A stretch of DNA of 64,000 bases from Deltaproteobacteria bacterium (GCA_026129095.1 JAHCIT010000009.1:62001-126000); one strand, 5' to 3'. Counted from the first letter of the stretch, positions 40,390-60,297 are shown. The notes: a model not told the origin generated them from the sequence alone. Translations and numbers: made by a program.

Positions 40390-40402
40390 TGCCGCCTGCT
40401 GT

Positions 40403-42915: not shown

Positions 42916-43829
42916 GGCGGACGAACGAGTTGCAGGCGTCCATCCCCCACAGCCACCTCTGCGCCCAGGGGAAGCGCGAGGTTGCGCCGCCCGTGCCCGG
43001 CAGCAAAGCCCGTCCAGACCGGCACTCCCAGTTCAGCACCGGCGGACTTCATCAGTTCCTCGACCGACTGGCGGTACCGTCTTGCACCTGCCGGTGGGCT
43101 GAAGTCGCCCAGCACAAGCGCCCGCACCCCCCGGAAAGCACCGCTCAGGCGAAGCTGGGTGAGAAACGCATCAAGCCGGTAGGCCTGCTCATTCACGTCT
43201 TCAAGAAAGACAATGCCGCCCAGCCGCGGAGGACAGCCGGTTCCACAAAGGGAGGCCAGCACGGCCAGGTTTCCTCCCGTGAGCCTGCCTTGCACCGGTT
43301 TCCCTGTTCTCCCGCCGGGACCGTAAAGAAGCTTCACCCGGCCAAGCGATGCGCCGGGCTCCAGCTTCCCGAACAGCAGTTTTTCATACTGCCGCCGCGT
43401 GGCCGGATGGACCGGCTTTCCGAACTGGGCCGGATGGGGCCCATGCAGGGACCATGCGGTTCCGGCACCTGCCAGTACCTGATGAATCACCGTGTTGTCC
43501 GAAAAACCCACGAACAGCTTGGCCTGACCGCCGAGCCGACTCTGGAGCAGCGGCGCGATCCGGGCGCAGCCGAATCCGCCACGCACGGCAAACAGCGCCT
43601 TGATCCCCGGATCCCGCCAGTATCCGAGGAACTCGTCCGCCCGAAGCGTGTCTGAACCTGAAAGATAGCGGTCCGGTTTTCTCGGAAGCCGGGTCGTCAC
43701 CTTGAGTCCGAGACTTTCCAGATACCTGATTTCAGCGGCAAGTCTCGCCGCCTTGACGAACCCGGCGGGCGCAACGAGCGCGACGCGGTCGCCCGGCGAA
43801 AGCGGAACCGGCACATGTTTTCGGTTCAA
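42897..43829 (-). CDS. ldcA: LD-carboxypeptidase (S66)
   Basis: RGGFG, GFSD, GGNL, LEDV and GHG triad motifs; start uncertain. Confidence 0.88.
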   Translation of the reverse strand: MNRKHVPVPLSPGDRVALVAPAGFVKAARLAAEIRYLESLGLKVTTRLPRKPDRYLSGSDTLRADEFLGYWRDPGIKALFAVRGGFGCARIAPLLQSRLGGQAKLFVGFSDNTVIHQVLAGAGTAWSLHGPHPAQFGKPVHPATRRQYEKLLFGKLEPGASLGRVKLLYGPGGRTGKPVQGRLTGGNLAVLASLCGTGCPPRLGGIVFLEDVNEQAYRLDAFLTQLRLSGAFRGVRALVLGDFSPPAGARRYRQSVEELMKSAGAELGVPVWTGFAAGHGRRNLALPLGAEVAVGDGRLQLVRPPWGGGR

Positions 43830-44003
43830 ATCCCTGACACCCCTGCCGTGGGCCCGGCCGGCCTGATATCCTGTCGCACGAACAGTCCTGATCGTATAAA
43901 ATCCTTTCGATGTCCACAACCCGTGTACGCCGGGAAATCTTTCCGGCCTCCCCAGGCCGGATGGCGGGACTGCCTGCCGCCAGTTTCCGGCTGGAGCCCT
44001 GCC

Positions 44004-44519
44004 GTGCCTGAAATAACTGACCGGCGGTACATGAGGATGAAGGTGCTGCGCCCGCTATCCTTCACCTATGAGGACGAAACCTATGAAGCCGAGCTACGGG
44101 ATATCTCACTCTGCGGCGCACTCGTCATTTCCGACGTGCCGGTGGAGACTGGCCGCCGTGTCCAGCTGGAAATAACGCTGCCGGAAACCGCCGAACCGGT
44201 CCGGGTGAACGGCAAGATCGTCCGCCTTCTCTCCCTTTCCGCCGGACTCGGCAACGGATTCGGGGTGGATTTCACGGTTGTTTCGCTTTCCAACCGTGAA
44301 ATCATCGATGGATACGTCCGGTCCACATTCCGGCACTTCCGCAGACTCCAGTTCGAACTGAGCAAGTTCGATGTAGACTGGGACACGGTCAACAGGCTGA
44401 TTCCCCACACATACCTGCCGGTACGGAACTATTCGGCGGAAACCCTGAGGAGCCTGGTGACAATCGAACTGGAGAGTTTCCGTCTGCGAAAAGTGGTTTC
44501 CGCCAGCGCGAACGGTTAA
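44004..44519 (+). CDS. PilZ-domain (c-di-GMP receptor) protein
   Basis: RxxxR (RRYMR) and DxSxxG (DISLCG); GTG start with GGAG RBS. Confidence 0.85.
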   Translation: MPEITDRRYMRMKVLRPLSFTYEDETYEAELRDISLCGALVISDVPVETGRRVQLEITLPETAEPVRVNGKIVRLLSLSAGLGNGFGVDFTVVSLSNREIIDGYVRSTFRHFRRLQFELSKFDVDWDTVNRLIPHTYLPVRNYSAETLRSLVTIELESFRLRKVVSASANG

Positions 44520-44531
44520 TAGGCGCGGGCG

Positions 44532-45119
44532 ATGAGTGCCAGAAAAGTGCCCAAGAAAATTGTCCTGACCGGAGGCCCCTGCGCCGGCAAGACGACCATC
44601 GCCGAAGTCCTCTCGCGGGCCTATGCCGGCGACATTGTGGTTGTGCCGGAGGCCGCCTCGACCCTGTTCAACGGCGGATTTCCCCGGTGGCCGGAACGCG
44701 AATCGCGGGCGGCGCTTCAGCGAAGCGTGTACCGGGTCCAGAACGAACTGGAAGTGGTCTATCGGGCCCACCATCCAAACCAGCTTCTGGTCCTGGATCG
44801 CGGAACCGTTGACGGCGCGGCCTACTGGCCCGATGGACCCGACGCCTTTTTCCAGACCATGCAGACCTCCCTTGAAGCTGAACTTGGCCGCTATCACCAG
44901 GTCATCTATCTGGAGAGCGCCGGAGAAGAAGCCTACCTGATTCACGGCAAGCGCAATCCAAACCGAACAGAAACCTGGGCAGAAGCCCGGCATCTTGACG
45001 AACTGACGCGAGCCCTGTGGGAGAAGCACCCGGCGATGACCGTCATCCCCAACCAGCGCGCCTTCAGCGAGAAAATCTCGGCGGTGTTACGGATCGTCGA
45101 GCAGGCGATGACGGCCTAG
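44532..45119 (+). CDS. P-loop NTPase (AAA_28/NadR-like)
   Basis: GGPCAGKTT, VPEAA, LDRG. Confidence 0.8.
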   Translation: MSARKVPKKIVLTGGPCAGKTTIAEVLSRAYAGDIVVVPEAASTLFNGGFPRWPERESRAALQRSVYRVQNELEVVYRAHHPNQLLVLDRGTVDGAAYWPDGPDAFFQTMQTSLEAELGRYHQVIYLESAGEEAYLIHGKRNPNRTETWAEARHLDELTRALWEKHPAMTVIPNQRAFSEKISAVLRIVEQAMTA

Positions 45120-46123
45120 CCGCTCCGGCCGGTGGCGCCGCCAATGAGCGTGCGCCGAAGCCCGTACCACAGCTCCCTGAAACGGTCCTGCGGGCGGTCC
45201 AGAAGCAGAATGGGAAAGAGGCTGCGCGGTCCGAAGCCAAGCGGCGCACGGCCCATGGTGCAGCGCCGAAGCAGCCGGTCATCACCGGCAACACTGCCGT
45301 GTTCCAGTTCTCCCAATGGCGTCCCCAGCAGGCTCGCCGCTGCCCCGAGCGCCAGCATGACAAGCCGCTTCTCACCGCTCTTGCCGGCAAGCACCTCAAA
45401 TGCGGCAGCGCTAATCTCTGTCTCCGGATGGCGCAGAAACCGGTCCAGGTCGTACAGGAACAGCAGGCGTTCACTGAAACCGTGCCAGGCGGCGTTCCTC
45501 GCCAGCCAGTAGAGCGCCGCCTCCGGCGTAAGCACAGGCCGTCCTGCATCCTTCGTCACAACAAAATCCGCAAACCGGAGCGGGCTCCCGGCGAATGGCC
45601 GGTCGTGAAGCTCCACGACCGTGCGGAAATCCCCATCAGTACGGACAAACCGCCACGGCCCCTCCTGTTCCCGGTCGAGCCGGTCAGCCCTGGTGTCCAT
45701 CAGTTCATAACCGGACTGCCGGATTAGCAGCGCCATGTCGGCCCGGAAATCCGTGGGTACAATCAGGTCAATATCGCTCATGGGCCGCATCGCCGGGTCG
45801 ATGCCCAGACGCTCAATCAGATCGGTCCCCTTGAGCGGTACGACGGGAATCCGGCTGCTCACGGCAGTCTCCAGCAGCTCACAGGCGACGTCGAGCTGAA
45901 GCACGGTTCTTGCCCGGATCGACCGGAGCAGCGGCGAGGAGGGGTCAACCCGTTCCATAACAGGCCCGGCAAGGCCGTGACCTGTAGCAGACTGAAACAG
46001 GGACGGACGGGGAGGAACCGGGAAAAGCACCCCCCGCAGGATCTTCACCAGCAGATTAAAATCGCCCGGCTCAGACTGGAACGCAACCGCGCCCTGTGAA
46101 GCAAAATTGTCTTTGTTTTCCAT
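45116..46123 (-). CDS. Nucleotidyltransferase family protein (NTP_transf_5-like)
   Basis: LKG, RPMSDIDLIV, VELH, LYDL. Confidence 0.8.
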   Translation of the reverse strand: MENKDNFASQGAVAFQSEPGDFNLLVKILRGVLFPVPPRPSLFQSATGHGLAGPVMERVDPSSPLLRSIRARTVLQLDVACELLETAVSSRIPVVPLKGTDLIERLGIDPAMRPMSDIDLIVPTDFRADMALLIRQSGYELMDTRADRLDREQEGPWRFVRTDGDFRTVVELHDRPFAGSPLRFADFVVTKDAGRPVLTPEAALYWLARNAAWHGFSERLLFLYDLDRFLRHPETEISAAAFEVLAGKSGEKRLVMLALGAAASLLGTPLGELEHGSVAGDDRLLRRCTMGRAPLGFGPRSLFPILLLDRPQDRFRELWYGLRRTLIGGATGRSG

Positions 46124-46241
46124 AGGTTACTGTGAGCCTAATCATGGCATTCAGCACCACTTCAGCCTACAATATCACAAGCTGACCCGAGGGCTGGCCT
46201 GTGCAATTTTGTGCGGCCACCGATAGCGCACAACGAGCCGG

Positions 46242-49200
46242 ATGCAGAGCAGACTGAACCATACGAAATGCAAACCCAAGCAGCAGAGGCGGCGGCCGTT
46301 TCTGGCCGCGCTCGTGCTGGCCGCTGCCATGGTCGCCATTGAAAAGCCGGCGGACGCATTCATCACCGGATTCGACACCACGCTGGTTCCGCCTGCACCG
46401 AACAACTCGCTGGTGCTCGAGGTGCCGGCGGGTCAGCGTGGCACGGTCAGCGCGCTGGTATTTCCCTACAGCGGCGGCACCCCGGCGGCGGCTAACGACC
46501 ATTTCGGCAATAACCAGGACGGCGGGTTCGCCTGGAACGTGGATGACTGTGCCGGAGCAAAGTACGCCGTCAGGTGGGATCCGGCTGGCGGAGGCGGCGC
46601 CGGGGGCGTCCGCCACTACGGCCTCACCAGTTGCAACGGAAACACGGGGAGATCCGGGCTGTTCAACGAGGTCTCCCGAACCCAGACCAACTTCAACGTC
46701 ACCCCGTTCGGCGACCTGGAAGCCGTGATCCGGATGGAAACCTTCCAGAATGGCGCAGGAGGCGGACAGAACCGCCAGATGCGCGTCGTCCAGAAGACGG
46801 TCATCCGCAACAACAACCAGTGGTTCGGCCAGAGCTACCGGTTCACCAATGAAAGCGGTGTCAACTACAGCGACGGCGGCGGCGGACTGTGGTTCTTCAG
46901 CGGTGTGGACTGGAACTTCTGCCAGAACTTCAACAACGACGATTCAATCTATGACGCCGCCAGCGACACGATCATCGGCAACAAGCAAACAGCCTCCGTG
47001 CCGGCTACCTGCGGAGCCGGAAACTTCGTTGCCGGGGGATTTACCGCTCGCTGCACAGCGGGCGGATGCGCGCCGACCTGGACTTCCGACGTGCGCCGCT
47101 GCGCCGCCTACAACACGATCTGGAGCGACATGAACAGCAATGCCGGGACCGGCGGATGCCCGTACGGCGGTGACGCGGGAACTTACCTGCGCTGGAACCT
47201 GGGCGCCCTCAATGCCGGTGCGACCACAATTCTTCCGATCATCTGGTCATACCAGCAGAGCAGTTCCGTCGCCAATGCCCGCACGGCGGTCATCAATAGC
47301 ATCCAGACCGGCATGCCCCAGCGGTACAACGCCTCCGCCATTGACATCACCTTCTCTCCGGAAACCAGCGGCGACCGGTACAACTCCCTCCTGACCGCGA
47401 ACCTGACCATCGGCGGGAACGTGGGCCTCCGGGGCTGGGTAGACGTAACGGTTCCGTCAAACCTTTCCATCACCGGACCGGCTGGATGTCTTGTTGGAAG
47501 CCAGGCCATGACGGCCGTTGATCTGGCCGTTCCCAGCCCCGAGTCGGCCAGCGTCGGAACCTATAACCGCTCGCTGGCGAGCTGCGCCGCCGGTGTCCAT
47601 ACCGTCAATCTCTGCTCGAACCTCACCGATGATTCGACGCCCGGTGACGATTGCGTCTCCCGGACCTTCACCATTTCGACGTTCCTGATCGAGCCGGACG
47701 GCAACACGACCGCCGCACCGGGCGATACAGTCAACTACCCGGTCAGCACCTACAAGGACTCCACCGGCACGCAAACCTACGATTTCACGGTCAGCGCGTC
47801 CTCGCAGGGATGGACCACACAGCTCTGGTACATCGGCCCGGTAATCGGGGCGTGCGGCGCGCCGCCCTGCCTGATGGCCGAGGACACCGACGGGAACGGC
47901 ACCTGGGATACCGTCACCGCCGCCTTTGACACGAACAGCAACGGCAACCCCGATTTCGGCGTCTCCAACGGAATCAACAACGGCGCGGGCGCCGGTTCCC
48001 CGCGCCTGCAGATCCGCAAGCTCATACCAGTTACGGAAGGGTCTGGAATCACCGACGAAACCGTGTTGACGGGAACTGAGGGAGCCAATACCGACACGCT
48101 GACCGTGACGACCTCCACGACGGCGCCCACGCCCGTCACCAAGACGCTTCATCTGCACCCGGCCAACCAGATGAACACGTTCCCGGACACGCAGGTCGCG
48201 GCCAGCAACACCGCTGTCGCCCCGGCCTCGACCATTTTCTGGCAGCAGACAACCGCCTTCGCCACCGGGTTCAACATTCTGGGCGCGGGAAACATTGTCG
48301 GGCAGATGTACGTCGGGACCGCCGGTGCGAACCGGAGTGTCACCTTTACCCTGCTCACGACCGGCCCCAGCGGCTGCCCGGCGAACCTGGGAGCGGTCAC
48401 CCAGAACATCAATCAGCCGGCGGCCAACCCTGCGCTCACGACCGTCAATTTCGCCAGCATTCCCACCCTGGAGGTTCCCGCAGGCTGCCGCGTGGTGCTG
48501 GCCATCACCAACAACACGGTCACGGCCGGCAACCTCACGGTCTATCACGACAACCAGGGGACCGGGCACCGCAGCCGCATCAACTTCACAACGACGAGCT
48601 TCGTGCGCGTGGCGGACATGGACCTTTATTCCGGCGCCTGCCCGGGCACGACGCCCGTCCTGTCGATCGCCCCCACCGGCGCGCCGGGGCCCGACGGCAT
48701 CACTGCCTGCCTGCGGGCGGTCATCAGCGATCCGTTCGGCGCGGGCGACATCGGTGCGCCCCCGCCCACACCCGTCAACTTTGCCAAGATTTCGGTCACC
48801 GACCCGTTCGGCAGCTACATGTGCTACCAGGGCGTCGGCAATCCCTCCACCAACTGCAACCGCATCAACAACCTGGAGATGAACTTCCTGTCGGCGACAG
48901 CCTCCAGCAACACGTACACGTTCGGTATTCCGATACCGTCCAAGCATCCGACCTCCGGCGACCAGCAGGCCCAGGCCCAGACCGGGACCTATGAAGTCAC
49001 GGTCACCGGCTACGAATCCAATGGCGTCACCTATACCCGGTCTTTCACCTTCTTCGTGACCGCCGCACTGGCCGCCAAACTGCTGTCCTTCGAGGGCAGC
49101 GGCTATGAAAACCGAAACGACATTCGCTGGCTCACCGGGCAGGAGATCGACACGCTCGGCTACAACATCTACCGGAGTGACCTGCCGGACCGGGGCTTCG

Positions 49201-52200
49201 TTTCGGTCAATCCGTACCTGATCAAGGGGCTCGGCTACTCGGCCGTGGGCGGCGCCTACCAGTTCGCTGACACCACCGTCGAAACAGGCCGCGGCTACTA
49301 CTACATTCTCGAAGAGGTTGAATCGTCAGGAAGCACCCACCGCTACGGCCCCATTTTCGTGGAAGCCCGGCTGGACCATGAAGCGCCGCCCTCCGACTTC
49401 ACCCACGCGAACAACTATCTCACCAGCGTCGTTCCGCCCACCATTCTGGATCCGCTGCTACCGGCCGACGAGATGCCACCCGCACCGCCCGACGCCGCGA
49501 CGCTCCGGACGAACGAAACTCCGGCAGGAGGCGACACCCCGGCCCAGAGCCGCACGGTAGATGTGGAGATCATCCTCCCGGCTCCGGCGTGGTCCACGGT
49601 CGAGATCGGCGATGACGCCTGGGACCGGATCGAGATGCACGGTCTCGACCTGGTGGCTCCCGCCGGATACCCGGCCGTTCCCGGCGCCACGTATCTCATC
49701 AAGGCTCCGCAGGGCACATTCACCGGGCACCAGATCACCGGCACGGACTGGTATCCCGACTACGGCCGGCAGATCCTCCCGGTTGCAGAAACCGGGCTTC
49801 CCGCCTCCGCACTGAATGACCTCGTTGGAGCCGACACTACCGAGCCGGGACCGCCCTCACCGGACGCCATCGTTTATGGGTCCGACGCGCTCTTCCCCTC
49901 CGATGCCGTTGTCGTGAGTCCACCGGTGGAGATCGGCGGCCAGCGGTTTGTCCCCGTGCATGTCACCGGATACCAGTGGAACCCCGTATCCGGCACGGGC
50001 CGCGTCATCCAGCGCATCACGCTGAAACTCCAGTTCACGGACGTGCAGGAGACCAATGCCCTGCCCGCCGTCGATACAGCCCTTCAGCGGCAATGGACAC
50101 TTGCCTCCAGTCCTGCGGCCGTGAAGGTGCTGGTCGGCCATGACGGCATCCAGTCGGTGACGGCTGACGACCTGGGTGCAGCCGGGCTCACGCTCGGCGG
50201 CCCTGCCGCCAACATCCAGTGCTTCCGGAAGGGGAAGGAAATTGCCGTCGATGTGATCGACGCGAACGTGAACGGCCTGTTCGATTCGGGCGACGGGATA
50301 CTCTTTTACGGCGAGAACGACGCGGGTGAATACCGCCTCACCTCGGCCTACTGGTGCATGGCCGGTACCAGCCCGGGCCTCCGGCCTGAAATCGTGGACG
50401 CCCAGCCGGATATCGCCCCGCCGGTTCCAGAGGGGTCGTGGTTCCTCGCCAGCCACCGCTACGAGGAGGACAAGGTCTACTTCGAGACGCTGAATGCCCA
50501 GGACGAAGACCACTGGTTCTGGAAGACGCTATCGGCACAGGCAGGACAGAACGGCGCCCTGAACAACTTCACCGTCACCGCCAATGGGCTGAACACGGCC
50601 GGCCCGCTGGCGGCGGTGACGTTCCAGATCCGGGGGCAGACAGTCAGCACCGCCACACCGGTCAACAACCATCATGTCCGCGTGTTTATCAACGGCACGA
50701 AAGTGGATGATTTCCTGTTCACCGGCCGGGAACTGGTCACACGGCGCACGTCCTTCAGTTCATCGCTGCTTGCCTCCGGAAACAACACGGTCGCCTTCCA
50801 GGTGATTGGCGACCGGGTGTCGAGCGGATTCGTGACGAGCTGGCTCAACTGGATCCAGATCATCTATCCCCGCAGCTACCAGATGCAGGATGGCCGCCTC
50901 GACTTCACCACCCCCGGCGACGGCCGTTACATGGTGACGGACGTGGACGGGAACCCCTGTCTCTACGACGTTTCCGATCCGGTCAGGATCAAGAAACTGA
51001 CCGGCGGAATGGCCTTCGGCGGAACGCTGACGTTTGCCGTCGCGGGCGACGCCCACAAGCGGATACTCACCGCCGTGACCCCAACAGGGGTGAGATACCC
51101 GCCCGTTCAGGCCAATACGCCATCCACGCTGAACGATGTCCGCCGCCGGGCCGATTACATCGCCATCGGGCCGGACGACCTGCTCGCGGCAGCCGAGCCG
51201 CTGCTCCAGCACCGTGAACGAGAGGGGATGCGTGTCCTGCGCGCCCGCGTAAGCGACGTGATGGACGAGTTCGGCTGGGGAGACAGCGACCCGCTGGCCA
51301 TCCGCGGGCTGTTCCGCCACGCCTGGCACCGGTTCCCGTCGAAACCCAAATACGCGCTGCTGGTGGGCGATGCCGACCAGGATGCCCGCGGAATGCTGGC
51401 TCCGCCCGCCGCGGGGAACCAGCACCAGACGCCGACGTTCCTCTACGACAATCCGCATTTCCGCGCACCGGCGGACAACTACCTCGCCCTCCTCGAAGGG
51501 TTCGATATCGTCCCGGATCTTGCGGTGGGGCGTCTTTCGGCCCGCAATGCCGGAGAAGTGACCGCCCAGGTGGAAAAGATTCTCGCCTACGAGGCGCAGC
51601 CGATGACCGCGCCTCATGTGCAAACCGTGACCCTCGTGGCCGACAACGCCATGAACAAGCCCGAGGACAAGCTGATCCGGGCACAAACCGAAAGTGATAT
51701 CGTACCGATCGTCACGGGCTCCGGCCGCTCGGTAAACCGGCTGTACCTGGCCGACGGTTCCCCCCCACCGAATCTGCCGGCGACGACGGCCGGTGTCGCC
51801 GGCAGCCTGAACGCGGGCTCCCTGCTGCTCTATTACCGCGGTCACGGCTCATCGCTCCTGTGGGCGGACGAGCAGATTTTCCGCACCCACAATCCGTTCC
51901 TTCCCATCGGACCCAGCAACCGCGAGGACTGGGACCTGGTGTCGAACACCGAGCGGCTCGCGGTTGTCACCACGTTCGGCTGCCTCGACGGAAACTACGT
52001 CAACCCCTACACGTCGTCGATGTCGGAAGTGGCTATGCGGCGTGCCGATTCGGGCGTCGCGGCCTACCTGGCAGGCAGCGGCCTCTCGACACCGCCTGCC
52101 CATTCGGCGGCCGCACGGGCATTCTACGAAGCCGCCCTCGGGACCGGGCTCGTCCGGATCGGCGACGCCATGCGTGCTGCCATCATGGCCGCGGCCGGAG

Positions 52201-53324
52201 TGGGAGATGCCGACAGCTTCCTGCTGACCTGGACCCTGTTTGGCGATCCGGCCATGCGGCTCAGGATCAACCATGCGCCAGTGATCGACGCGAAGGTACC
52301 CGCCTCGTGGGCCGGCAGTTCGTCCGTTCCGCTCGATGCACGCAACTCCGCCGACCCGAACGGCGATACGGTTTCCTTCCGCTGGACGCTCATCGACAGG
52401 CCCGCCGCCGCCACCTCGGCCCAGATCCGCGGCGCCGAAACGGCCCGTGCGGTGCTGGTGCCTGGCGGGACGGGCCGCTACCGGGTACGGCTTACCGTGA
52501 CAGACTCGTGGGGGCTGACCTCGCTCAGGGATTTCACCACCACTGTCCAGAGCCTCGACACCGACGGCGACCTGGACGGAATCCCCGATTCGGTCGAGAT
52601 ACTCCTCGGGACGAATCCCAACAGCTCCGATTCCGATGGCGACGGCATTGATGACCTTACCGAACTGGGCGACTTCAGCCGGCCCTGGGATACCGACCGG
52701 GACGGCGTGATTGACGCCCTCGACACCGATTCGGACGGCGACGGCATCAGCGACCGGCTGGAGGGCACCTCCGACACCGACGGCGACGGCGTGCCGAACT
52801 ACCGCGACCTCGACTCCGACGGCGACGGAAAGCCCGACAGCATTGAAGGGACGGGCGATCTCGACGGCGATGGCATCCCCAACTGGCTGGATGCCGACGA
52901 CCACGACGGCCCGCTCGGCGACCCCGACATGGACGGCGTGACGAACCTCGTGGAAAACCTCTGTGGCAGCAGCCCGTGGCATTTCGATTCCGACCGGGAC
53001 GGCATACCGGACGGCATCGAGGCATTTGTAACCGAAACCGGCTCGTTCGACCTGGACGGCTACCCGGCCGGCGCCATCCACAGCGACTGCGGCCTCCCCG
53101 ACCGGGATGGCGACGGCATCCCCGACATACTGGACCCCGATACGGACGGCGACGGCATCCCCGACCTTGTGGAAGGTGCCCGTGACCTGGACGGCGACGG
53201 CATCCCCAACTTCCGCGACCTCGACTCCGATGGCGACGGCATCCCCGACGCCGCGCTGGAAGACGGCTCGCCCAACTACGAGATCCCCGTCACCACCGAA
53301 CCCCGCTTCGCAATCGAAGAATAG
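46242..53324 (+). CDS. Giant secreted C25 (gingipain/PorU-type) cysteine protease with PKD-like domain and Ca-binding DxDGDG repeats
   Basis: Signal peptide; ADYIAI, YALLVGD, AVGRL, catalytic GHGS (His 51843-51845) and FGCLDG (Cys 51981-51983), LFGDP; C-terminal DxDGDGIPD repeats. Confidence 0.85.
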   Translation: MQSRLNHTKCKPKQQRRRPFLAALVLAAAMVAIEKPADAFITGFDTTLVPPAPNNSLVLEVPAGQRGTVSALVFPYSGGTPAAANDHFGNNQDGGFAWNVDDCAGAKYAVRWDPAGGGGAGGVRHYGLTSCNGNTGRSGLFNEVSRTQTNFNVTPFGDLEAVIRMETFQNGAGGGQNRQMRVVQKTVIRNNNQWFGQSYRFTNESGVNYSDGGGGLWFFSGVDWNFCQNFNNDDSIYDAASDTIIGNKQTASVPATCGAGNFVAGGFTARCTAGGCAPTWTSDVRRCAAYNTIWSDMNSNAGTGGCPYGGDAGTYLRWNLGALNAGATTILPIIWSYQQSSSVANARTAVINSIQTGMPQRYNASAIDITFSPETSGDRYNSLLTANLTIGGNVGLRGWVDVTVPSNLSITGPAGCLVGSQAMTAVDLAVPSPESASVGTYNRSLASCAAGVHTVNLCSNLTDDSTPGDDCVSRTFTISTFLIEPDGNTTAAPGDTVNYPVSTYKDSTGTQTYDFTVSASSQGWTTQLWYIGPVIGACGAPPCLMAEDTDGNGTWDTVTAAFDTNSNGNPDFGVSNGINNGAGAGSPRLQIRKLIPVTEGSGITDETVLTGTEGANTDTLTVTTSTTAPTPVTKTLHLHPANQMNTFPDTQVAASNTAVAPASTIFWQQTTAFATGFNILGAGNIVGQMYVGTAGANRSVTFTLLTTGPSGCPANLGAVTQNINQPAANPALTTVNFASIPTLEVPAGCRVVLAITNNTVTAGNLTVYHDNQGTGHRSRINFTTTSFVRVADMDLYSGACPGTTPVLSIAPTGAPGPDGITACLRAVISDPFGAGDIGAPPPTPVNFAKISVTDPFGSYMCYQGVGNPSTNCNRINNLEMNFLSATASSNTYTFGIPIPSKHPTSGDQQAQAQTGTYEVTVTGYESNGVTYTRSFTFFVTAALAAKLLSFEGSGYENRNDIRWLTGQEIDTLGYNIYRSDLPDRGFVSVNPYLIKGLGYSAVGGAYQFADTTVETGRGYYYILEEVESSGSTHRYGPIFVEARLDHEAPPSDFTHANNYLTSVVPPTILDPLLPADEMPPAPPDAATLRTNETPAGGDTPAQSRTVDVEIILPAPAWSTVEIGDDAWDRIEMHGLDLVAPAGYPAVPGATYLIKAPQGTFTGHQITGTDWYPDYGRQILPVAETGLPASALNDLVGADTTEPGPPSPDAIVYGSDALFPSDAVVVSPPVEIGGQRFVPVHVTGYQWNPVSGTGRVIQRITLKLQFTDVQETNALPAVDTALQRQWTLASSPAAVKVLVGHDGIQSVTADDLGAAGLTLGGPAANIQCFRKGKEIAVDVIDANVNGLFDSGDGILFYGENDAGEYRLTSAYWCMAGTSPGLRPEIVDAQPDIAPPVPEGSWFLASHRYEEDKVYFETLNAQDEDHWFWKTLSAQAGQNGALNNFTVTANGLNTAGPLAAVTFQIRGQTVSTATPVNNHHVRVFINGTKVDDFLFTGRELVTRRTSFSSSLLASGNNTVAFQVIGDRVSSGFVTSWLNWIQIIYPRSYQMQDGRLDFTTPGDGRYMVTDVDGNPCLYDVSDPVRIKKLTGGMAFGGTLTFAVAGDAHKRILTAVTPTGVRYPPVQANTPSTLNDVRRRADYIAIGPDDLLAAAEPLLQHREREGMRVLRARVSDVMDEFGWGDSDPLAIRGLFRHAWHRFPSKPKYALLVGDADQDARGMLAPPAAGNQHQTPTFLYDNPHFRAPADNYLALLEGFDIVPDLAVGRLSARNAGEVTAQVEKILAYEAQPMTAPHVQTVTLVADNAMNKPEDKLIRAQTESDIVPIVTGSGRSVNRLYLADGSPPPNLPATTAGVAGSLNAGSLLLYYRGHGSSLLWADEQIFRTHNPFLPIGPSNREDWDLVSNTERLAVVTTFGCLDGNYVNPYTSSMSEVAMRRADSGVAAYLAGSGLSTPPAHSAAARAFYEAALGTGLVRIGDAMRAAIMAAAGVGDADSFLLTWTLFGDPAMRLRINHAPVIDAKVPASWAGSSSVPLDARNSADPNGDTVSFRWTLIDRPAAATSAQIRGAETARAVLVPGGTGRYRVRLTVTDSWGLTSLRDFTTTVQSLDTDGDLDGIPDSVEILLGTNPNSSDSDGDGIDDLTELGDFSRPWDTDRDGVIDALDTDSDGDGISDRLEGTSDTDGDGVPNYRDLDSDGDGKPDSIEGTGDLDGDGIPNWLDADDHDGPLGDPDMDGVTNLVENLCGSSPWHFDSDRDGIPDGIEAFVTETGSFDLDGYPAGAIHSDCGLPDRDGDGIPDILDPDTDGDGIPDLVEGARDLDGDGIPNFRDLDSDGDGIPDAALEDGSPNYEIPVTTEPRFAIEE
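52557..53249 (+). repeat. Coding TSP3-like Ca-binding repeats (D-T/S-DGDGIPD)
   Basis: More than ten degenerate copies of gac-n-gacggcgacggcatcccc, all in frame. Confidence 0.85.
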
Positions 53325-53349
53325 ACGGGTTCGCTTACCCAAAAATAAC

Positions 53350-53373
53350 GAGCCCGGGTTATACCCCGGGCTC
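53350..53373. terminator. Terminator hairpin between the C25 gene and the CRISPR locus
   Basis: GAGCCCGGG-TTATAC-CCCGGGCTC; the A-tract on its left gives a U-tail on the minus strand. Confidence 0.6.
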
Positions 53374-53403
53374 AAGGTTGTTCCGGAAGGTTGCCCAACC
53401 GGA

Positions 53404-53432
53404 TTAACATTCAGTTTTTTGTTGTGTAGAAT
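53404..53432 (+). promoter_or_regulatory. Putative sigma70 promoter for cas9
   Basis: TTAACA-N17-TAGAAT. Confidence 0.5.
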
Positions 53433-53471
53433 ATTTTCCGCTTAGCGGACGAATATGTGCTTAGGGGATTG

Positions 53472-53590
53472 AAAAAATTTGCCCCAGGCCGTGGGTTACA
53501 CGAACTGGGGCTAGATGCAATAAGCCTGCGGATTTTCACCTTTTGGGTGTCACCTTATTTTGGGTGCGGGCAGGCTCCAGTCAGTTACGC
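53472..53590 (-). ncRNA. tracrRNA
   Basis: Anti-repeat with 24/24 complementarity to the repeat (53565-53588), lower stem CAAAAU, then AAGG...UCCG nexus, a GCCCCAG/CUGGGGC hairpin and a U-tract. Confidence 0.9.
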
Positions 53591-53594
53591 GACA

Positions 53595-53623
53595 AAAATA
53601 GTCCGAATGTTATCCGGAATCAA
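53595..53623 (-). promoter_or_regulatory. tracrRNA promoter
   Basis: Minus strand TTGATT-N17-TATTTT, placing the TSS at the start of the anti-repeat. Confidence 0.65.
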
Positions 53624-53637
53624 GAGGGTTCAACCAA

Positions 53638-56600
53638 ATGGAAGATTACAACTTCAAAACCACCTTGGGTTTCGATATCGGAACGAACTCTGTCGGAAGC
53701 GCATGGGTAGACGTTTCAGGACGCGACATCACCTTTGGAGTCAGTATATTCCCCAAAGGCGTAGAGGAAAGTGAAAGCAAACGAGGAGCGCCAAAAAACC
53801 TGGCTCGCCGATCCAAACGATCTCAACGGCGAATGTTTGATAGGCGAGCAAAAAGGTTACGCCGCTTACGGTCGGTCCTCACAGCGCACGGCCTGCTACC
53901 TTCAGACCCCGAAGAATTCCGGCGCCTGTTCTATCCGACGAGAAAAGAAATAAAACAAACCGGAAAAAAGCAAGACAATCCATGGCTGCTCCGCCGAAAA
54001 GCATTGTCCGAACCGCTTGAACCATACGAACTTGGTAGAGTGCTTCTGCACCTTTCCCAGCAGCGTGGAGCGTTTGGCGTAGATTTTGAAGAAGGTGATA
54101 CCGAATCAGAGAACAGGAAAGAACAGCCCCAGAAGAAGGAAGCTTTGGCACGGACCCAATGCGAACTGAACGGCCGCACTTACGGTCAAATGATGGCCGA
54201 CCTGTTCGATACGGAAAAAGTTCCTCTGAAAGAACAACCACCCGATGGCAAATTCTACCGGAAGCCCATACGCAACAGACGGGGCGCTTACCTGTTTCAT
54301 GCCGACAGAGAGATGATTCGGGATGAATTCCGGCGGATTTGGACAAAACAGAAGTCATTACCTGGGAAACTCACTGGGCTGCTCACCGACGATTTCAGAA
54401 CCATACTTGATAACCCCCAAGGCGATGCGACCTGGCGTCACAAAGGCGAGATATTTGGTCAGCGGCGCACTTACTGGGACACCGGTACGCTCAGCCGGTG
54501 CATACTGGAACCGACCGATTTATGCTGCCCGCTTGGCGACCGCTATGCACAGGAATTTAGGGTGCTTGAAACCGTCAACAGCATCCGTATTGACGACCGT
54601 GCGCCAGGATCACGGCCGTTGACAGACGAAGAACGCGCCGCTCTTATTACCGCATTACGGAAAGAGAGGAATGGCACCGTTGAGCGGGTGAAGAAAGCTC
54701 TCGAAATCGACAAGAAAACCCTCAGAAAGAAGGGGGGCGCTGACGTCTATCGCCTTAACCTGGAAAACGATCCCGACCGAGAGATCAATACCGACTGGTT
54801 TTACCGGGAAATCGTACACGGGGTATTCGGCCATGATTCGATTGAGAATTTGTCCGATGCCGACCGCGTTCGCCGTCTCGATTCCGTCAATAGCGCACTG
54901 CTCAAATACGATCCTGCGTCTGCAGCAGATAGTCATCGCTTATCGGACAAAGCGGAAGCATGGTGGAAGCTGGATTCAAGTCAGATAGAACGGCTGCTCA
55001 CTGCGTGGAAAGAACGCCCGAATCCACAACAACGAATGAGGCTTTCCCGGCGGGCGATTATCAATCTGTTGCCTTATTTGAGGCAAGGCTATTCAGTCAC
55101 AGAGGCCAGGCAACATTTTGCGGAAGACGAACAAAGTGGAGCTTCTCCAGAACAACGCATACGATATGCACATACCGTTACTGAAGCAGTAAAAACGATT
55201 CTTAAAAACTCCGTACCTCCTCAAGACCTTCCCAGGCTTTTCCAGCTACGAACATCCAATAAAGCAACCCGTCGGTATATTGAGAGACGAAATGGAGTTT
55301 TGCCGCCACCACCATTTATCGCCAATCGCGTGGCCCGGAAAGCTGTCTACGAGGTCCGAAGACATCTGATTCATTACTTACGAAAGTTCGGCCAAAAACC
55401 CGATAGAGTGATCGTTGAACTAGCCAGGGATGCTACCCAGCCAGCCAAGCGCCGAGACAAACAGCTCGCAGAAAACCGGCAGAGAGAAAAAGACCGAAAA
55501 ACCATCCTTGAATCATATGGATTATCCGGGAAACAAAAAAATCAGCAAGATAAAGCTGTTGAACGTATTCGCTTGTGGCAGGAACAAAAGGGTATCTGCC
55601 CCTATTCCGGAGAGTGCATTCCACCTCAGATTCTGACCGATAGCAATGCCATGCCTGGTAAACGGATAGAAGTCGACCACATCATTCCTCGAAGCCGTTC
55701 CGGCGTAGACAACAGCTTCAACAATAAGTTGCTATGTTTTGCGGATTCCAACAGGACCAAGGGAGACCGCACTCCGAAAGAGTGGTTAACGGCGGAGCAG
55801 TTCGAACAACTGGAGCAACGACTCCAGCATCTTCCCGGGAAAAATGGTGTTAATCCGGTCAAATGGAAAATCCTGCATAAAGACGCACCAAAATCCGATG
55901 AGGATGGATTTACCAACTCTCAGCTATCCGATACCGCTTATGCCTCTGTGCAAATCTGCGACTATTTACGCAACGCCCTTTACGACGGAGAGATGGATGG
56001 CAGACGCCGCGTGTTTACAACGAAAGGCCGATTTACCGCCATACTTCGTAAGGAGTGGGGCCTGTTTGAAAGTGCTCTTGATGCCGAATGGCATCCGGAG
56101 TTAGCCCAGCCTGCCGCTGAAATAGAGCCCGGAAATGACCGGCCTGTCAGCCGTAAGGATGGAAAGCGCCGATGGGATCACCGCCATCATGCAATAGACG
56201 CCGTCGTAATTGCCATGACCGGCCCTGAGCGAATCCAGGAGCTATCCCGGCGTGCTCAGCAACAAGAATTGCAGAAAAAAGAAAGTGGACTCACACCGAA
56301 ACAGGCGAAACTTGACCCGCCATGGAATAGTTTTAAAGATCAAGTACTTACAAAATTGAAAGGCCACGTAGTTGCGCACCGGCCCACAAAGCGAAAAGTG
56401 GTCGGAGCTCTACATGAAGACAACCCTTTCGGACGGGCGAAATCACCGGTGAACCGCGATACATACCTAAAAGGTCTCTACCAGCAGCGCGTCGGGGTAT
56501 CGAAGATCACGGACAGCAGCTTTGGAGAGATTAGACCGCCTTCCAAGGCAAATGGCGAATGGAGTACAGGAGGCAAACCCGTAATCTTGAATCCCACACT

Positions 56601-57360
56601 CCGAAAACAACTTAAATTACACGGCGCTATAGACAAAAATACAAGGGTGATTTTACAAACTACCGGAATCCCGGTATTCAAATGGACGAGCGCACGGGCG
56701 ATCGGAGACCCTGTCGAGATAAAGTCCCGGAAAGATGGCGTTCAGAGATTTTATCGCCCCGATAATAACCATCATATCGAGATATTAGCGCATAAAGAAT
56801 CCAATGAATGGACTGGAATTTGCTGGAGCATGTTCCATGCTGCGCGCAGAGCAAAACCCCCAAAAATACTTAAACAGTATCGCCTACCATTGGTCATAGG
56901 TCGAAGCCTTGGACAATTAATTGAAAATCGAGATCATCTCTCAGCTTCTCTAGCAACATTGTATGGAGATGAATTAGGTCTGAAATTATTTAGAATATAT
57001 GAATCGCATAATTTTATTTTTTCGGTCAGTTTAGGAGAGATTTTCCGGATGAGGCATAAAAAGACCAATATGCCAGGATTTTTCAAAGTCGTAAAAATCG
57101 AGGACAGAAGCATCACTTTCACCGGCCACTGGGATGCTCGAGGAGCCCCCAGCAAAAAACCTAATGATGGCAAGAAAAACAAACAAAAGACTGGGACAGC
57201 AGGCACTATCGGCACGTCAGAAATGGTAGCGAACCCGCCTCGAGATGAATTCAGCTGCAGTCCTGCACAAATGAAAGATTTAGGTTCTGAACCCGGTATC
57301 GCACCCTACAAGGTAAGAATTAGCCCCCTAGGAGTAATAGAGAAAATCGAACTGGATTGA
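53638..57360 (+). CDS. cas9: Type II-C CRISPR endonuclease Cas9 (1240 aa)
   Basis: RuvC-I LGFDIGTNSVG, Arg-rich bridge helix, RuvC-II VIVELARD, HNH EVDHIIPRS..NNKLL..N..KG, RuvC-III DHRHHAIDAVVIA. Confidence 0.97.
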   Translation: MEDYNFKTTLGFDIGTNSVGSAWVDVSGRDITFGVSIFPKGVEESESKRGAPKNLARRSKRSQRRMFDRRAKRLRRLRSVLTAHGLLPSDPEEFRRLFYPTRKEIKQTGKKQDNPWLLRRKALSEPLEPYELGRVLLHLSQQRGAFGVDFEEGDTESENRKEQPQKKEALARTQCELNGRTYGQMMADLFDTEKVPLKEQPPDGKFYRKPIRNRRGAYLFHADREMIRDEFRRIWTKQKSLPGKLTGLLTDDFRTILDNPQGDATWRHKGEIFGQRRTYWDTGTLSRCILEPTDLCCPLGDRYAQEFRVLETVNSIRIDDRAPGSRPLTDEERAALITALRKERNGTVERVKKALEIDKKTLRKKGGADVYRLNLENDPDREINTDWFYREIVHGVFGHDSIENLSDADRVRRLDSVNSALLKYDPASAADSHRLSDKAEAWWKLDSSQIERLLTAWKERPNPQQRMRLSRRAIINLLPYLRQGYSVTEARQHFAEDEQSGASPEQRIRYAHTVTEAVKTILKNSVPPQDLPRLFQLRTSNKATRRYIERRNGVLPPPPFIANRVARKAVYEVRRHLIHYLRKFGQKPDRVIVELARDATQPAKRRDKQLAENRQREKDRKTILESYGLSGKQKNQQDKAVERIRLWQEQKGICPYSGECIPPQILTDSNAMPGKRIEVDHIIPRSRSGVDNSFNNKLLCFADSNRTKGDRTPKEWLTAEQFEQLEQRLQHLPGKNGVNPVKWKILHKDAPKSDEDGFTNSQLSDTAYASVQICDYLRNALYDGEMDGRRRVFTTKGRFTAILRKEWGLFESALDAEWHPELAQPAAEIEPGNDRPVSRKDGKRRWDHRHHAIDAVVIAMTGPERIQELSRRAQQQELQKKESGLTPKQAKLDPPWNSFKDQVLTKLKGHVVAHRPTKRKVVGALHEDNPFGRAKSPVNRDTYLKGLYQQRVGVSKITDSSFGEIRPPSKANGEWSTGGKPVILNPTLRKQLKLHGAIDKNTRVILQTTGIPVFKWTSARAIGDPVEIKSRKDGVQRFYRPDNNHHIEILAHKESNEWTGICWSMFHAARRAKPPKILKQYRLPLVIGRSLGQLIENRDHLSASLATLYGDELGLKLFRIYESHNFIFSVSLGEIFRMRHKKTNMPGFFKVVKIEDRSITFTGHWDARGAPSKKPNDGKKNKQKTGTAGTIGTSEMVANPPRDEFSCSPAQMKDLGSEPGIAPYKVRISPLGVIEKIELD

Positions 57361-57404
57361 CCTTCCCCCTGAAAACCGATCCAGTTTTTGGGGTGAGGTC
57401 ACCC

Positions 57405-58286
57405 ATGATTAAACGCTGTATCGAAATCTCGGAGAAGCCCGCCTACCTGTCGCTGCGCGACGGGCAGATGATCATCAAACACGGAGACGAAATCCTCTCA
57501 ACCGTTCCCATCGAGGATCTGGGCGTCCTCATCGTGGACAACCCCGGCGTCACCTATTCCCACGGCCTGCTCGGTGCCCTGCTGGAGGCGAACGTGGCCG
57601 TCGTCGTCTGCGGCCGGAACCGCCACCCGGCGGGGCTGCTGCTGCCGGTGGAGGGCCATACGCTCCAGAACCGGGCGGCAGCAGCGCAGGCGGCGGCCAG
57701 CGACAGCCTGCGGAAACGGCTCTGGAGGCAGATCGTGCGGGCCAAGGTGCAGCACCAGGGGCAGGTGGTGGCCGAACAGGGAGCCGAGGCCGGCGCGTTC
57801 ACGGAACTGGCCCGGCAGGTGAAGAATGGCGACCCAGACAACATCGAGGCGCAGGCGGCGCAGCGGTACTGGCCGCTGCTGTTCACTCCCGCCTTCCGGC
57901 GGAGCGACGAATCGCAGTTCATCAACTCGTTTCTCGACTACGGCTACACGGTGCTGCGGGCGGCGGTGGCGCGGGCCATCGCCGGGGCCGGACTGCACCC
58001 CTCGCTGGGGCTCCACCACCGGAACCAGTACAACGCCTTCGCGCTGGCCGATGACCTCATCGAGCCGTTCCGCCCGTTCACCGACCGGGCGGTGATCCGG
58101 CTGGTGAACGGGCAGGCGGACACCCTGGACAAGCGGGCCAAGGCCGAACTCCTCAGCGTGCTGTCGGTTCCGGCTGCCATCCAGAACCGGCGGGTTCCGC
58201 TCATGGTGGCCCTGCATACGACGGCGGCGTCGCTCCGCGAGTGCTACACGGGCGAGCGGGACACCCTGGAGTTTCCGGCGCCATGA
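57405..58286 (+). CDS. cas1: Type II CRISPR-associated Cas1
   Basis: VPIEDLGVLIVD, NIEAQAAQRYW, LDYGY, GLHHRNQYNAFALADDLIEPFRP; GAGGT RBS. Confidence 0.96.
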   Translation: MIKRCIEISEKPAYLSLRDGQMIIKHGDEILSTVPIEDLGVLIVDNPGVTYSHGLLGALLEANVAVVVCGRNRHPAGLLLPVEGHTLQNRAAAAQAAASDSLRKRLWRQIVRAKVQHQGQVVAEQGAEAGAFTELARQVKNGDPDNIEAQAAQRYWPLLFTPAFRRSDESQFINSFLDYGYTVLRAAVARAIAGAGLHPSLGLHHRNQYNAFALADDLIEPFRPFTDRAVIRLVNGQADTLDKRAKAELLSVLSVPAAIQNRRVPLMVALHTTAASLRECYTGERDTLEFPAP

Positions 58287-58618
58287 GCGTCACGTTCGGG
58301 GGGTTCCGGTCCATGTGGCTCGTGTCAATGTTCGATCTGCCCGTGGACACGGCTGAGGCCCGCAAGCAGTACACCCGGTTCCGCAAGGGGCTTCTCAAGG
58401 ACGGCTTTACGATGATGCAGTTCTCGGTGTACATTCGCCACTGCGCGTCGGACGAAAACGCGCAGGTCCACGCCAGGCGGGTGCAGGCGATGCTCCCCCC
58501 GGACGGCGAGGTGAGGCTGCTTCTCATCACCGACAAGCAGTTCGGACGAATGCAGGTTTACTGGGGAAAACGGCGCAGGCCGCCGGAAAACGCCCCGGCC
58601 CAGGTGGAGATGTTCTGA
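58283..58618 (+). CDS. cas2: CRISPR-associated Cas2
   Basis: MWLVSMFDLPV, FRKGLLKDGFTMMQFSVY, ITDKQF; ATGA overlap with cas1. Confidence 0.96.
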   Translation: MSVTFGGFRSMWLVSMFDLPVDTAEARKQYTRFRKGLLKDGFTMMQFSVYIRHCASDENAQVHARRVQAMLPPDGEVRLLLITDKQFGRMQVYWGKRRRPPENAPAQVEMF

Positions 58619-58631
58619 TGGCTGGCCCGTA

Positions 58632-58683
58632 TCCCGTAAGCCCCCGAAACCGCTTTCACCGGCGATTTCAGGGGCTTACGGGA
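58632..58683 (-). terminator. Long hairpin between cas2 and the array (probable end of the pre-crRNA)
   Basis: TCCCGTAAGCCCC / GGGGCTTACGGGA, a perfect 13 bp that extends to 22 bp with two G-U pairs on the minus strand. Confidence 0.6.
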
Positions 58684-58688
58684 GGGGT

Positions 58689-59052
58689 AGTGTAACTGAC
58701 TGGAGCCTGCCCGCAACTCAAAACCGTATATCCTGTCGATGGTCTGTTCGACCAGTGTAACTGACTGGAGCCTGCCCGCAACTCAAAACCATAGAGCTGG
58801 CGGAAAGCGCATTCTACAGAGTGTAACTGACTGGAGCCTGCCCGCAACTCAAAACTCGCGGTTATAGACGTTGAACCGTTCGCCAGTGTAACTGACTGGA
58901 GCCTGCCCGCAACTCAAAACTCACCGGAGCCCCCGGAGGCATCGGGGCTTAGTGTAACTGACTGGAGCCTGCCCGCAACTCAAAACATCTCAGGGCACGG
59001 TGGCAGCGCCTCGATAAGTGTAACTGACTGGAGCCTGCCCGCAACTCAAAAC
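58689..59052 (-). CRISPR. CRISPR array: 6 identical 36-nt repeats, 5 spacers (29, 30, 29, 30, 30 nt)
   Basis: Repeats start at 58689, 58754, 58820, 58885, 58951 and 59017. The minus-strand repeat GTTTTGAGTTGCGGGCAGGCTCCAGTCAGTTACACT begins GTTTT and pairs with the tracrRNA. Confidence 0.98.
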
Positions 59053-59096
59053 GGAAACAGAGGCTTCGCCCCCGTTTCCGTTTCGAGTGAGGCAGG
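59034..59096 (-). other. Leader-repeat RNA hairpin
   Basis: Inverted partial repeat copy GTTTCGAGT-GA-GGCAGG within the leader. Confidence 0.8.
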
Positions 59097-59259
59097 AAAC
59101 ACTTTAAAAGGCTCGCCTCCCGACACGCCGTTTCTTTGCGGCCGGAGCTCCGCTTGCCGAACCGGCGTTCAGCCGGTTAGGGACCACCTCCGGCCCGAAG
59201 CACCCGCCCCGGCCGGGCGGACGGCGGGACCGGAAAAACACCCTCTTAAAGGAAGCATT

Positions 59260-60147
59260 ATGGAAATCCAGCAGGTCGGAGTCGTGGGTCTCGGAGCGAT
59301 GGGGAGCGGCATCGTCAATGTCGTCTCCAAGGCGGGTATCAGGGTCGTGGCGGTGAAGGCCACTGGCGGCGATACGAGCAAGGCCCGGAAAGATTTCGAG
59401 GCCGGGATCGACAAGGAGGTGAGCCGGGGGAAGCTCGCCATTTACAAGGCCAATGCCGCCAAGAACGGCGTCACCTGGGCGGCCGGGCTGGATGAGCTGA
59501 AGGACTGCGACCTGATCATCGAGTCGATCGTCGAGGAACTGGACAAGAAGAACGACCTGTTCAGCAAGCTGGACAGGATCGTCAAGCCCGAGGGCATCTT
59601 CACGACCAACACGTCCACCATCGGGATCGACCAGATGGCCTCGGCGGTAAAGCGCGCCGACAAGTTCGCCGGGCTCCACTTCTTCAACCCCGCCCCGGTG
59701 ATGGGCCTCGTGGAGGTCATCACGGGATCCAGGACGTCCGGCGACACGAAGAACTCCCTCGTCTCCTTCTGCAAGGACGTGAACAAGTCGCCTGTTCCGC
59801 TCGCCTCGGCGCCGGGTTTCATCGTCAACCGGCTGCTGGTTCCCTACCTCGTGGATTCGATCCGGCTCATGGAGCAGGGCGTGTCGAACCCCGCCGACAT
59901 CGACACGGCGATGAAGCTGGGCTGCAACCACCCGATGGGGCCCTTCGAACTGAGCGACTACATCGGCCTGGATATCGTCAAGCACATGGCCGACATCCTC
60001 CATTCCGAGCTGAAGGAAGAACGCCTGAAGAGCCCGCCGAGCCTGGTGAAGCTGGTGGCAAAGGGCGACCTCGGCCGCAAGAGCGGCAAGGGCTACTACG
60101 ACTATTCGGGCGGCGGCCAGAAGGTGAATCCCGACGCCAAGGCGTAA
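59260..60147 (+). CDS. hbd: 3-hydroxyacyl(butyryl)-CoA dehydrogenase
   Basis: GLGAMGSG, NTST, GLHFFNP, GFIVNRLL, HPMGPF. Confidence 0.9.
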   Translation: MEIQQVGVVGLGAMGSGIVNVVSKAGIRVVAVKATGGDTSKARKDFEAGIDKEVSRGKLAIYKANAAKNGVTWAAGLDELKDCDLIIESIVEELDKKNDLFSKLDRIVKPEGIFTTNTSTIGIDQMASAVKRADKFAGLHFFNPAPVMGLVEVITGSRTSGDTKNSLVSFCKDVNKSPVPLASAPGFIVNRLLVPYLVDSIRLMEQGVSNPADIDTAMKLGCNHPMGPFELSDYIGLDIVKHMADILHSELKEERLKSPPSLVKLVAKGDLGRKSGKGYYDYSGGGQKVNPDAKA

Positions 60148-60297
60148 GGGGCCTTTCGCTGACTCCCGCGTCAACCGGAACGGCCGGCCGGTTTATCTGC
60201 CGGTTGCCTGACTGCGCCAGACGGATTAACTAGCGCCCGCCCGCGGCCTTCCGGTTTCACGCGGAGCCCTCACACCCCAAGGACACAGCCAAGAGAC

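Follow-up and report, generated by a model that had tools for sequence, protein, structure and literature searches.

The window, a stretch of 64,000 nucleotides from a Deltaproteobacteria bacterium, carries a type II-C CRISPR-Cas module whose array is preceded, at its cas-distal and transcription-upstream border, by a long RNA hairpin that pairs the flanking sequence with the first-transcribed repeat. On balance, this hairpin is probably a composite cis-acting suppressor of extraneous crRNA. Judged from its sequence and from the systems described so far, the best reading is that it unites two devices known from type II-C loci, an upstream terminator and a guide hairpin, with a repeat-sequestering arm resembling that of type II-A, a kind of arm that two surveys state they did not find in II-C (PMC12080349, PMC13187072).

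The CRISPR-Cas locus and its orientation

Profile matches identified cas9, cas1 and cas2 as the only cas genes in 53638-58618, all on the plus strand (Table 1), and neither csn2, cas4 nor any further cas ORF was found within 53324-59260. Because csn2, the II-A gene, and cas4, the II-B gene, are both missing, gene content assigns the locus to type II-C. The module is flanked in the window by a PorU-like gene and by hbd. The former, directly upstream of the module, encodes a 2360-aa protein (46242-53324, plus strand) that matched models of PorU, the type IX secretion sortase, below their cut-offs (174 bits against a cut-off of 420), which hints at an organism of the FCB group despite a G+C-rich genome with few sequenced relatives.

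The sole other strong match to the repeat in the window lies at 53521-53630 (score 54 of 72, against 24 for the next best match in the same orientation) and falls at the canonical tracrRNA, which reads on the minus strand as an anti-repeat, AAUAAGG, a structured tail and then a terminator hairpin with six U. The crRNA strand is therefore also the minus strand and the array is read from 59052 toward cas2, convergently with the cas operon as II-C arrays are, which places the hairpin at the end that is cas-distal and transcribed first. For the tracrRNA itself, TTGATT-17 nt-TATTTT (53594-53622, minus strand) is a candidate promoter that adjoins the anti-repeat upstream and is divergent from cas9; its score of 8 out of 12 is under the scan threshold.

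In the II-C paradigm, as outlined in the pertinent parts of PMC12080349, PMC13187072 and PMC12477760, a promoter lies in each repeat, new spacers enter at the last-transcribed repeat, and the first-transcribed repeat is the oldest, 'extra' one. By analogy with these systems, the flank that the initial annotation took for a leader is probably not the acquisition leader but the old, transcription-upstream end of a II-C array.

Table 1. Features of the CRISPR-Cas module and its borders, in window coordinates
Feature	Position	Strand	Basis or remark
cas9 (1240 aa)	53638..57360	+	TIGR01865, E 9.6e-153
cas1, type II (NMENI)	57357..58286	+	TIGR03639, E 1.3e-81
cas2	58283..58618	+	TIGR01573; Cas2_II
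tracrRNA, canonical: anti-repeat ~53557-53590, AAGG-led tail, terminator hairpin + T6	53470..53597	-	alignment, sequence, fold
Second long hairpin, 22 continuous bp	58625..58680	-	-47.8 kcal/mol, z -7.3
CRISPR array: six identical 36-nt repeats, five 29-30-nt spacers	58689..59052	-	strand from tracrRNA
First-transcribed ('extra') repeat	59017..59052	-	identical to the other five; 0 mismatches to consensus
Whole hairpin: 21-bp main stem, GAA loop, 7-bp outer helix	59034..59096	-	MFE -46.6 kcal/mol, z -8.22
Intrinsic-terminator-like unit (predicted): 13-bp stem (59080-59052), 3-nt loop, tail TTTTGAGTTG	59042..59080	-	terminator scan
Upper hairpin: 12 bp + GAA loop; fills all 27 nt of the would-be extraneous guide	59053..59079	-	fold
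Anti-repeat arm, degenerate inverted repeat copy	59080..59096	-	pairs with repeat nt 1-9 and 13-19
TAAAGT motif, proposed as -10 box	59101..59106	-	not conserved

Fold of the hairpin and its anti-repeat arm

Minus-strand folding of 59034-59106 gives a main stem of 21 continuous base pairs, 59088-59068 with 59044-59064, and an outer helix, 59096-59090 with 59034-59040, separated from it by an internal loop of 1 x 3 nt. This agrees with the initial annotation, which had described a continuous 21-bp stem with an extension, the extension now being counted as 7 bp with a U-G as its seventh pair. None of 200 dinucleotide shuffles was as stable, and the fold is retained when the context is lengthened to 114-309 nt. 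On the plus strand the energy is ~12 kcal/mol less favourable (-34.5 kcal/mol) and the stem is interrupted at three places, so that the three wobbles exist as G-U on the minus strand alone; the claim that these positions are G-U here and A-C on the opposite strand was thus confirmed. The 3' arm covers nt 1-9 and 13-19 of the first 36-nt repeat and all 27 nt preceding that repeat also lie inside the stem, bearing out the proposed burial of the repeat's 5' half together with the would-be extraneous guide. The length of the hairpin was judged solely against the 8- and 12-bp criteria of PMC12080349. An Rfam scan of 52500-60000 at E up to 1 returned as its sole match a chance miRNA (22.7 bits against a gathering score of 150), and the hairpin is not a dispersed repeat, its only other match in its own genome being the tracrRNA anti-repeat.

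Aligned to the repeat's reverse complement, the 17-nt anti-repeat arm shows a 2-nt gap and a single G in place of A, and it leaves unpaired repeat nt 10, which is the bulge position in the tracrRNA duplex. The 22 nt at 59080-59101 contribute -22.5 kcal/mol to the fold, a value reached by 0 of 5000 shuffles of those 22 nt and by 9 of 5000 random 22-mers of the window; the complementarity of arm and repeat is beyond chance. A cruder test, the duplex energy of the 70-nt flank against a 25-nt repeat segment, gives z -2.05 in the window and -2.78 in the close relative G003 described below. The element as a whole comprises a degenerate anti-repeat and one terminator-like hairpin, without likeness to the tail of the locus tracrRNA. 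The features by which a tracrRNA is recognised, an anti-repeat joined to a Cas9-binding tail with nexus, 3' hairpins and terminator, are thus not present together in it.

The upper stem as a terminator-like unit

Once the 5' arm is left out, the scan for terminators reports the upper stem as a site of 13 bp (8 GC) with a loop of 3 and the tail TTTTGAGTTG, against 0.1 expected in shuffles. This tail is the start of the first repeat, the G+C-rich stem-loop running straight into the repeat's GUUUUGAGUU, and the U-tract is short, with 4 U followed by GAGUU. In the native context, with the 5' arm present, the scan does not list 59042-59080, presumably because the stem continues over the T-run. The upper stem and the U-rich start of the repeat, a combination overlooked in the initial annotation, are terminator-like by prediction. 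Across 40000-59999 the scan yielded 21 sites against 20.5 expected and is therefore silent on how far the organism relies on intrinsic terminators. The best terminator-like site of that region, 53349-53374 on the minus strand (10-bp stem, tail TTATTTTTGG), lies ~100 nt past the tracrRNA's own terminator and beside the stop of the PorU-like gene, and may be a back-up or bidirectional terminator.

Competition with tracrRNA and proposed mode of action

In co-folds with the tracrRNA the 21-bp stem persists and the outer helix alone is displaced, the tracrRNA pairing with repeat nt 11-36, and the co-fold gain is -30.1 kcal/mol at the hairpin repeat but -40.0 kcal/mol where the repeat is internal. 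What remains locked in the predicted co-fold is the guide, together with repeat nt 1-9 next to it. The initial annotation cited leader-repeat stem-loops that block tracrRNA pairing at the first repeat; for this hairpin such a block is too strong a description, since the tracrRNA is predicted to bind nt 11-36 with the stem intact.

Under the favoured reading of a composite suppressor, transcription entering the module from outside would largely be terminated at the U-rich start of the repeat. In RNA that reads through, the 21-bp stem would hold the would-be guide along with the repeat's guide-proximal part, the part that would form the lower repeat:anti-repeat stem with tracrRNA needed for Cas9 loading, and a tracrRNA settled on the 3' two thirds of the repeat would still give no usable guide. 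Real crRNAs would arise from promoters inside each repeat, for which TTGCGG-16 nt-TACACT is the candidate. If the extra repeat is the promoter of the first spacer, its DNA must therefore stay intact and the 5' half of its RNA would be dispensable.

Promoters and transcription

The TAAAGT motif that had been proposed as a -10 box is present upstream of the hairpin, but it does not hold as a conserved -10 box: it is changed in G003 and carries three substitutions and a 2-nt deletion in a third variant of the element. A sigma-70 scan of 58550-59350 called no promoter, repeat-internal ones included. The last 6 nt of the repeat form the -10-like TACACT, with TTGCGG 16 nt upstream, which is where the II-C papers put repeat promoters.

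Among public runs, 21 from 16 studies were listed as containing this locus, and three RNA runs contain a small share (0.07) of the stretch. From the RNA-library run X17 comes a 415-nt Logan contig that carries neither strand nor proof of RNA origin and continues into hbd; its depth of 6.45 resembles the 7.9 of the cas2 contig. A contig from X4 spans only 59116-59300. Contigs of the public runs X1 and X3 join the cas2-side flank (58688) to the hairpin-side flank (59017) through a single repeat with 328 nt skipped, a junction at which either the assembly collapsed on the 36-nt repeat or strains may be represented that have one repeat and no spacer.

Conservation of the element in two relatives

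Relatives of the locus were sought through Cas1. The scan of genome contigs confirmed 140 of 187 candidate stretches and that of metagenome contigs 127 of 225, with 80 kept from each; among these kept stretches only one, from genome G003, exceeds 47% Cas1 identity. Type II Cas1 occurs in 6 of 61 genomes searched, a set that includes the window's own, G003 alone being close. This organism belongs to the same family and a different genus, and its Cas1 is 83% identical to that of the window. Like that of the window, its array comprises six repeats, whose sequence differs by one base, and no spacer shared with the window was seen when the sequences of the two arrays were compared by reading. The third variant is found on the X17 contig, which covers 59023-59300 with 17 differences and 4 gaps relative to the window; the X1 and X3 contigs match the window exactly across the hairpin.

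The G003 element folds with -62.5 kcal/mol (z -9.48), its pairing extending to repeat nt 22-26 through ACUGG, which is also an inverted-repeat match. The third variant, its differences applied by script, reaches -57.1 kcal/mol against -47.5 for the window at the same coordinates, with an outer helix of 12 bp in a shifted register that extends to roughly repeat nt 30. In each of the three variants every one of the 21 pairs of the main stem is standard (63 of 63 cells). Two double-sided compensatory changes (59077/59055, AU to GC; 59069/59063, GC to CG) and two G-U/G-C swaps occur among them, and every main-stem wobble pair is G-U on the minus strand. This covariation comes from three lineages only, and the shuffle control, run on two alignable sequences, was uninformative (134/500); in the slide control, pairing drops from 98% to at most 56%. 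The view that an RNA structure has been selected here, put forward in the initial annotation, gains support from the minus-strand bias and from the retention of the fold in both relatives through structure-preserving changes. The outer helix is less strict, its terminal pair being lost in G003 and the pair 59094/59036 broken in the third variant.

All variable pairs are confined to the upper stem, which supports a terminator or guide hairpin and not the repeat-pairing arm. Between the window and G003 the upper hairpin has accumulated six substitutions and a 3-nt indel, all pair-preserving. The arm at 59080-59096 is identical at 17 of 17 nt between these two, and the third variant has a single change in it. 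Immediately upstream of the arm, window and G003 are barely alignable. Four-fold sites of cas1 are identical at 103 of 152 positions (68%) between the same two loci, a rate at which 17/17 identity would arise by chance with a probability of 0.678^17, or ~0.001. Such a pattern would be expected if the upper stem were selected for its shape and the arm for pairing with an unchangeable partner.

The upstream neighbour of the element is the divergent hbd gene in the window and, in G003, a co-directional 246-aa ORF (L009:137-877) that ends 15 nt before the element. The window's genome carries, on another contig, a homologue of this ORF with 53% identity (G000:C12:130939-131631, L170), so the ORF is a real gene, and by this gene arrangement the element in G003 appears to face real incoming transcription. 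Since the upstream neighbours differ, the element travels with the CRISPR module; the module itself, lying in different genomic contexts, has probably moved or been acquired separately. A minus-strand ORF in the window at 59104-60174, which ends in the TAA of TAAAGT, matched no Pfam family and was treated as spurious because it is antisense to the well-supported hbd gene.

Survey of cas-distal flanks

Loci with related Cas1 provided 92 listed arrays, from which 46, including the window, were kept on the basis of a 34-50-nt repeat that starts GTT opposite the cas strand, a cas-distal flank of at least 80 nt and no N. The window and G003 stand out in flank-repeat stabilisation, at -21.1 and -16.1 (0 of 150 shuffles each), the next best array reaching -10.7 (6 of 150). 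No flank-repeat hairpin of this kind was seen in the other 44 of the 46 arrays or is reported in the published surveys, and the feature is therefore lineage-specific.

Of the 44 other arrays, 15 carry at least three mismatches within the first 20 nt of their extra repeat, and the window and G003 carry none; two rows (L082 and L136) seem to be one locus and a further one (L132) is a register shift. By sequence, this is in line with the 'mutated extra repeat' strategy set out in the relevant part of PMC12080349. Several Bacteroidota II-C arrays with 46-47-nt repeats (L076, L056, L128, L145 and others) have the 5' 15-20 nt of the first repeat swapped for unrelated sequence, which looks hairpin-like in L076 and L056. 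The intact 3' half of these first repeats is as would be expected if only the promoter part must survive.

Comparison with known systems

Extraneous crRNAs from a spacer-less repeat are considered to waste Cas9. Type II-C devices against them, as described in the sections of Feussner et al. 2025 (PMC12080349) devoted to them, are upstream terminators, guide hairpins and mutated extra repeats. Type II-A systems (Liao et al. 2022, as cited in parts of PMC12080349 and PMC13187072) and Cas13 systems (PMC13187072, in part) block extraneous crRNA by leader-repeat hairpins. The survey of more than 650 II-C systems in PMC12080349, in the part that deals with such structures, found no hairpins between flank and extra repeat, and the corresponding part of PMC13187072 likewise reports that leader-repeat hairpins were not found in II-C.

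The terminator component of the element most closely parallels that of C. jejuni NCTC 11168, where, in the experiments related in part of PMC12080349, the upstream terminator tested includes the first 5 nt of the repeat. In both II-C loci a G+C-rich hairpin lies directly before the extra repeat, the start of the repeat supplies the U-stretch, and the proposed role is to insulate the array from outside transcription. Unlike in C. jejuni, the window stem goes 9 + 7 bp further into the repeat through the anti-repeat arm, and its U-tract is shorter, with termination at the level of prediction. An upstream Rho-independent terminator in the sense of PMC12080349 was found here with the 5' arm excluded, by a scan other than the predictor of that paper, RNIE. 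A guide hairpin as defined there (at least 8 bp with at most 2 unpaired nt) is also present, with 12-13 perfect bp retained in both relatives, so that a helix holds the 25 nt before the extra repeat, as in other II-C guide hairpins; the window helix differs in also engaging the repeat, a feature that the tests in the relevant part of PMC12080349 did not seek or find. The third II-C device, an extra repeat with at least two mutations relative to consensus, is absent from both the window and G003, with 0 mismatches in each.

The arm component is shared in principle with the II-A and Cas13 leader-repeat hairpins, in which RNA upstream of the first, spacer-less repeat pairs with it in cis, as the upstream transcript does in silico here. 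Those hairpins, according to the parts of the reports that describe them, belong to arrays with a leader promoter and sit at the acquisition leader beside the newest spacer, whereas that of the window belongs to a II-C locus, lies at the end that is oldest under the paradigm and is fused to a terminator-like stem, and excludes tracrRNA only in part in silico. The locus has neither csn2 nor a conserved promoter motif, as a II-A setting with a leader promoter would require. The precedent invoked in the initial annotation, leader-repeat stem-loops of type II arrays, is one reported for II-A; its proposal that a cis decoy silences the extraneous crRNA survives as the best reading.

The arm also recalls the tracrRNA anti-repeats and standalone repeat-like elements treated in part of the preprint of Shmakov et al. 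2023 (PMC10120712), as an inverse repeat-derived sequence in a type II locus whose pairing with the repeat is interrupted where the tracrRNA duplex is. It differs from them in having no Cas9-binding tail, in the presence of a tracrRNA elsewhere in the locus (53470-53597) and in being placed for cis pairing.

If the composite reading is true, the II-A and II-C solutions would not be exclusive to their subtypes, the element would offer a natural test case for telling termination from sequestration, and it would represent a route by which anti-repeats, and by extension tracrRNAs, might arise beside arrays. As a putative portable insulator at the border of a module found in differing contexts, it could help in transplanting II-C arrays.

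Alternative explanations

Several observations could be accounted for by a terminator or insulator alone, in which the A-rich 5' flank is the usual A-tract/U-tract pairing and the further repeat match a neutral relic of an inverted copy. The site is terminator-like by the scan once the 5' arm is excluded, the co-directional gene of G003 stops 15 nt upstream, the observed covariation is all in the upper stem, and a functional terminator occupies the same position in C. jejuni according to part of PMC12080349. This account is nevertheless unlikely, as pairing goes 10-13 bp past the A-tract/U-tract (ACUC:GAGU and the outer helix), which is rare by chance, and in G003 and the third variant it reaches repeat nt 26-30, past any termination point. 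The 17-nt arm is, moreover, invariant between the window and G003, two loci that agree at 68% of near-neutral sites and can barely be aligned immediately upstream of the arm. The same invariance, in the face of 32% four-fold-site divergence, speaks against a fossil without function, in which a past rearrangement would have left a repeat copy inverted head-to-head at the array's oldest, decaying end. Such an origin would explain the match of the arm to the repeat's reverse complement and why the pieces retained differ between relatives (ACUGG for G003, GGAG for the third variant), as decay predicts, but it is improbable in view of the compensatory and wobble-preserving changes that leave 63 of 63 main-stem cells paired, of main-stem wobbles that are all G-U on the minus strand, and of a 27-nt interval that forms a perfect hairpin, unlike a spacer.

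An anti-repeat followed by a hairpin and U-tract is a minimal tracrRNA-like layout, and the element could accordingly be seen as a trans-acting small RNA, a handle-less tracrRNA mimic, begun shortly upstream and ended at the U-tract, whose free 5' anti-repeat competes with tracrRNA or recruits RNase III. The unpaired spot at repeat nt 10 coincides with the bulge of the tracrRNA duplex, and the complementarity of two variants to nt 26-30 would be usable by a terminated transcript only in trans. A mimic of this kind is quite improbable, since TAAAGT is not conserved and no promoter was called, G003 leaves only 15 nt between the upstream stop codon and the element, the arm pairs 15-21 bp against ~31 for tracrRNA, and there is no sequence likeness to the tracrRNA tail. 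There is likewise only a small chance that a short terminated anti-repeat RNA without a Cas9 handle pairs with all repeats in trans and sets crRNA maturation, which would make it a living intermediate in the origin of tracrRNA from repeats. The element might lastly act as DNA, a 63-bp imperfect palindrome (cruciform or protein site) marking the array border for Cas1-Cas2 or recombination, as its position exactly at the repeat border, its travelling with the module and a second long palindrome at the opposite border would suggest. A signal at this level is highly improbable: the imperfect pairs are all G-U on a single strand, which would leave mismatches in both strands of the DNA, the plus strand folds 12 kcal/mol worse, and II-C acquisition is reported, in the relevant parts of PMC12080349 and PMC12477760, at the other end of the array.

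A second hairpin at the opposite border

The second long hairpin (Table 1) lies between the last repeat and the cas2 stop, which is the position of the acquisition leader in II-C, and is interrupted twice on the plus strand. Neither strand has a U-tract after it. G003 retains this hairpin with altered letters (L009:1305-1372, -45.9 kcal/mol). The array is flanked in this way by hairpins of 21-22 bp each, lengths that RNase III could cut.
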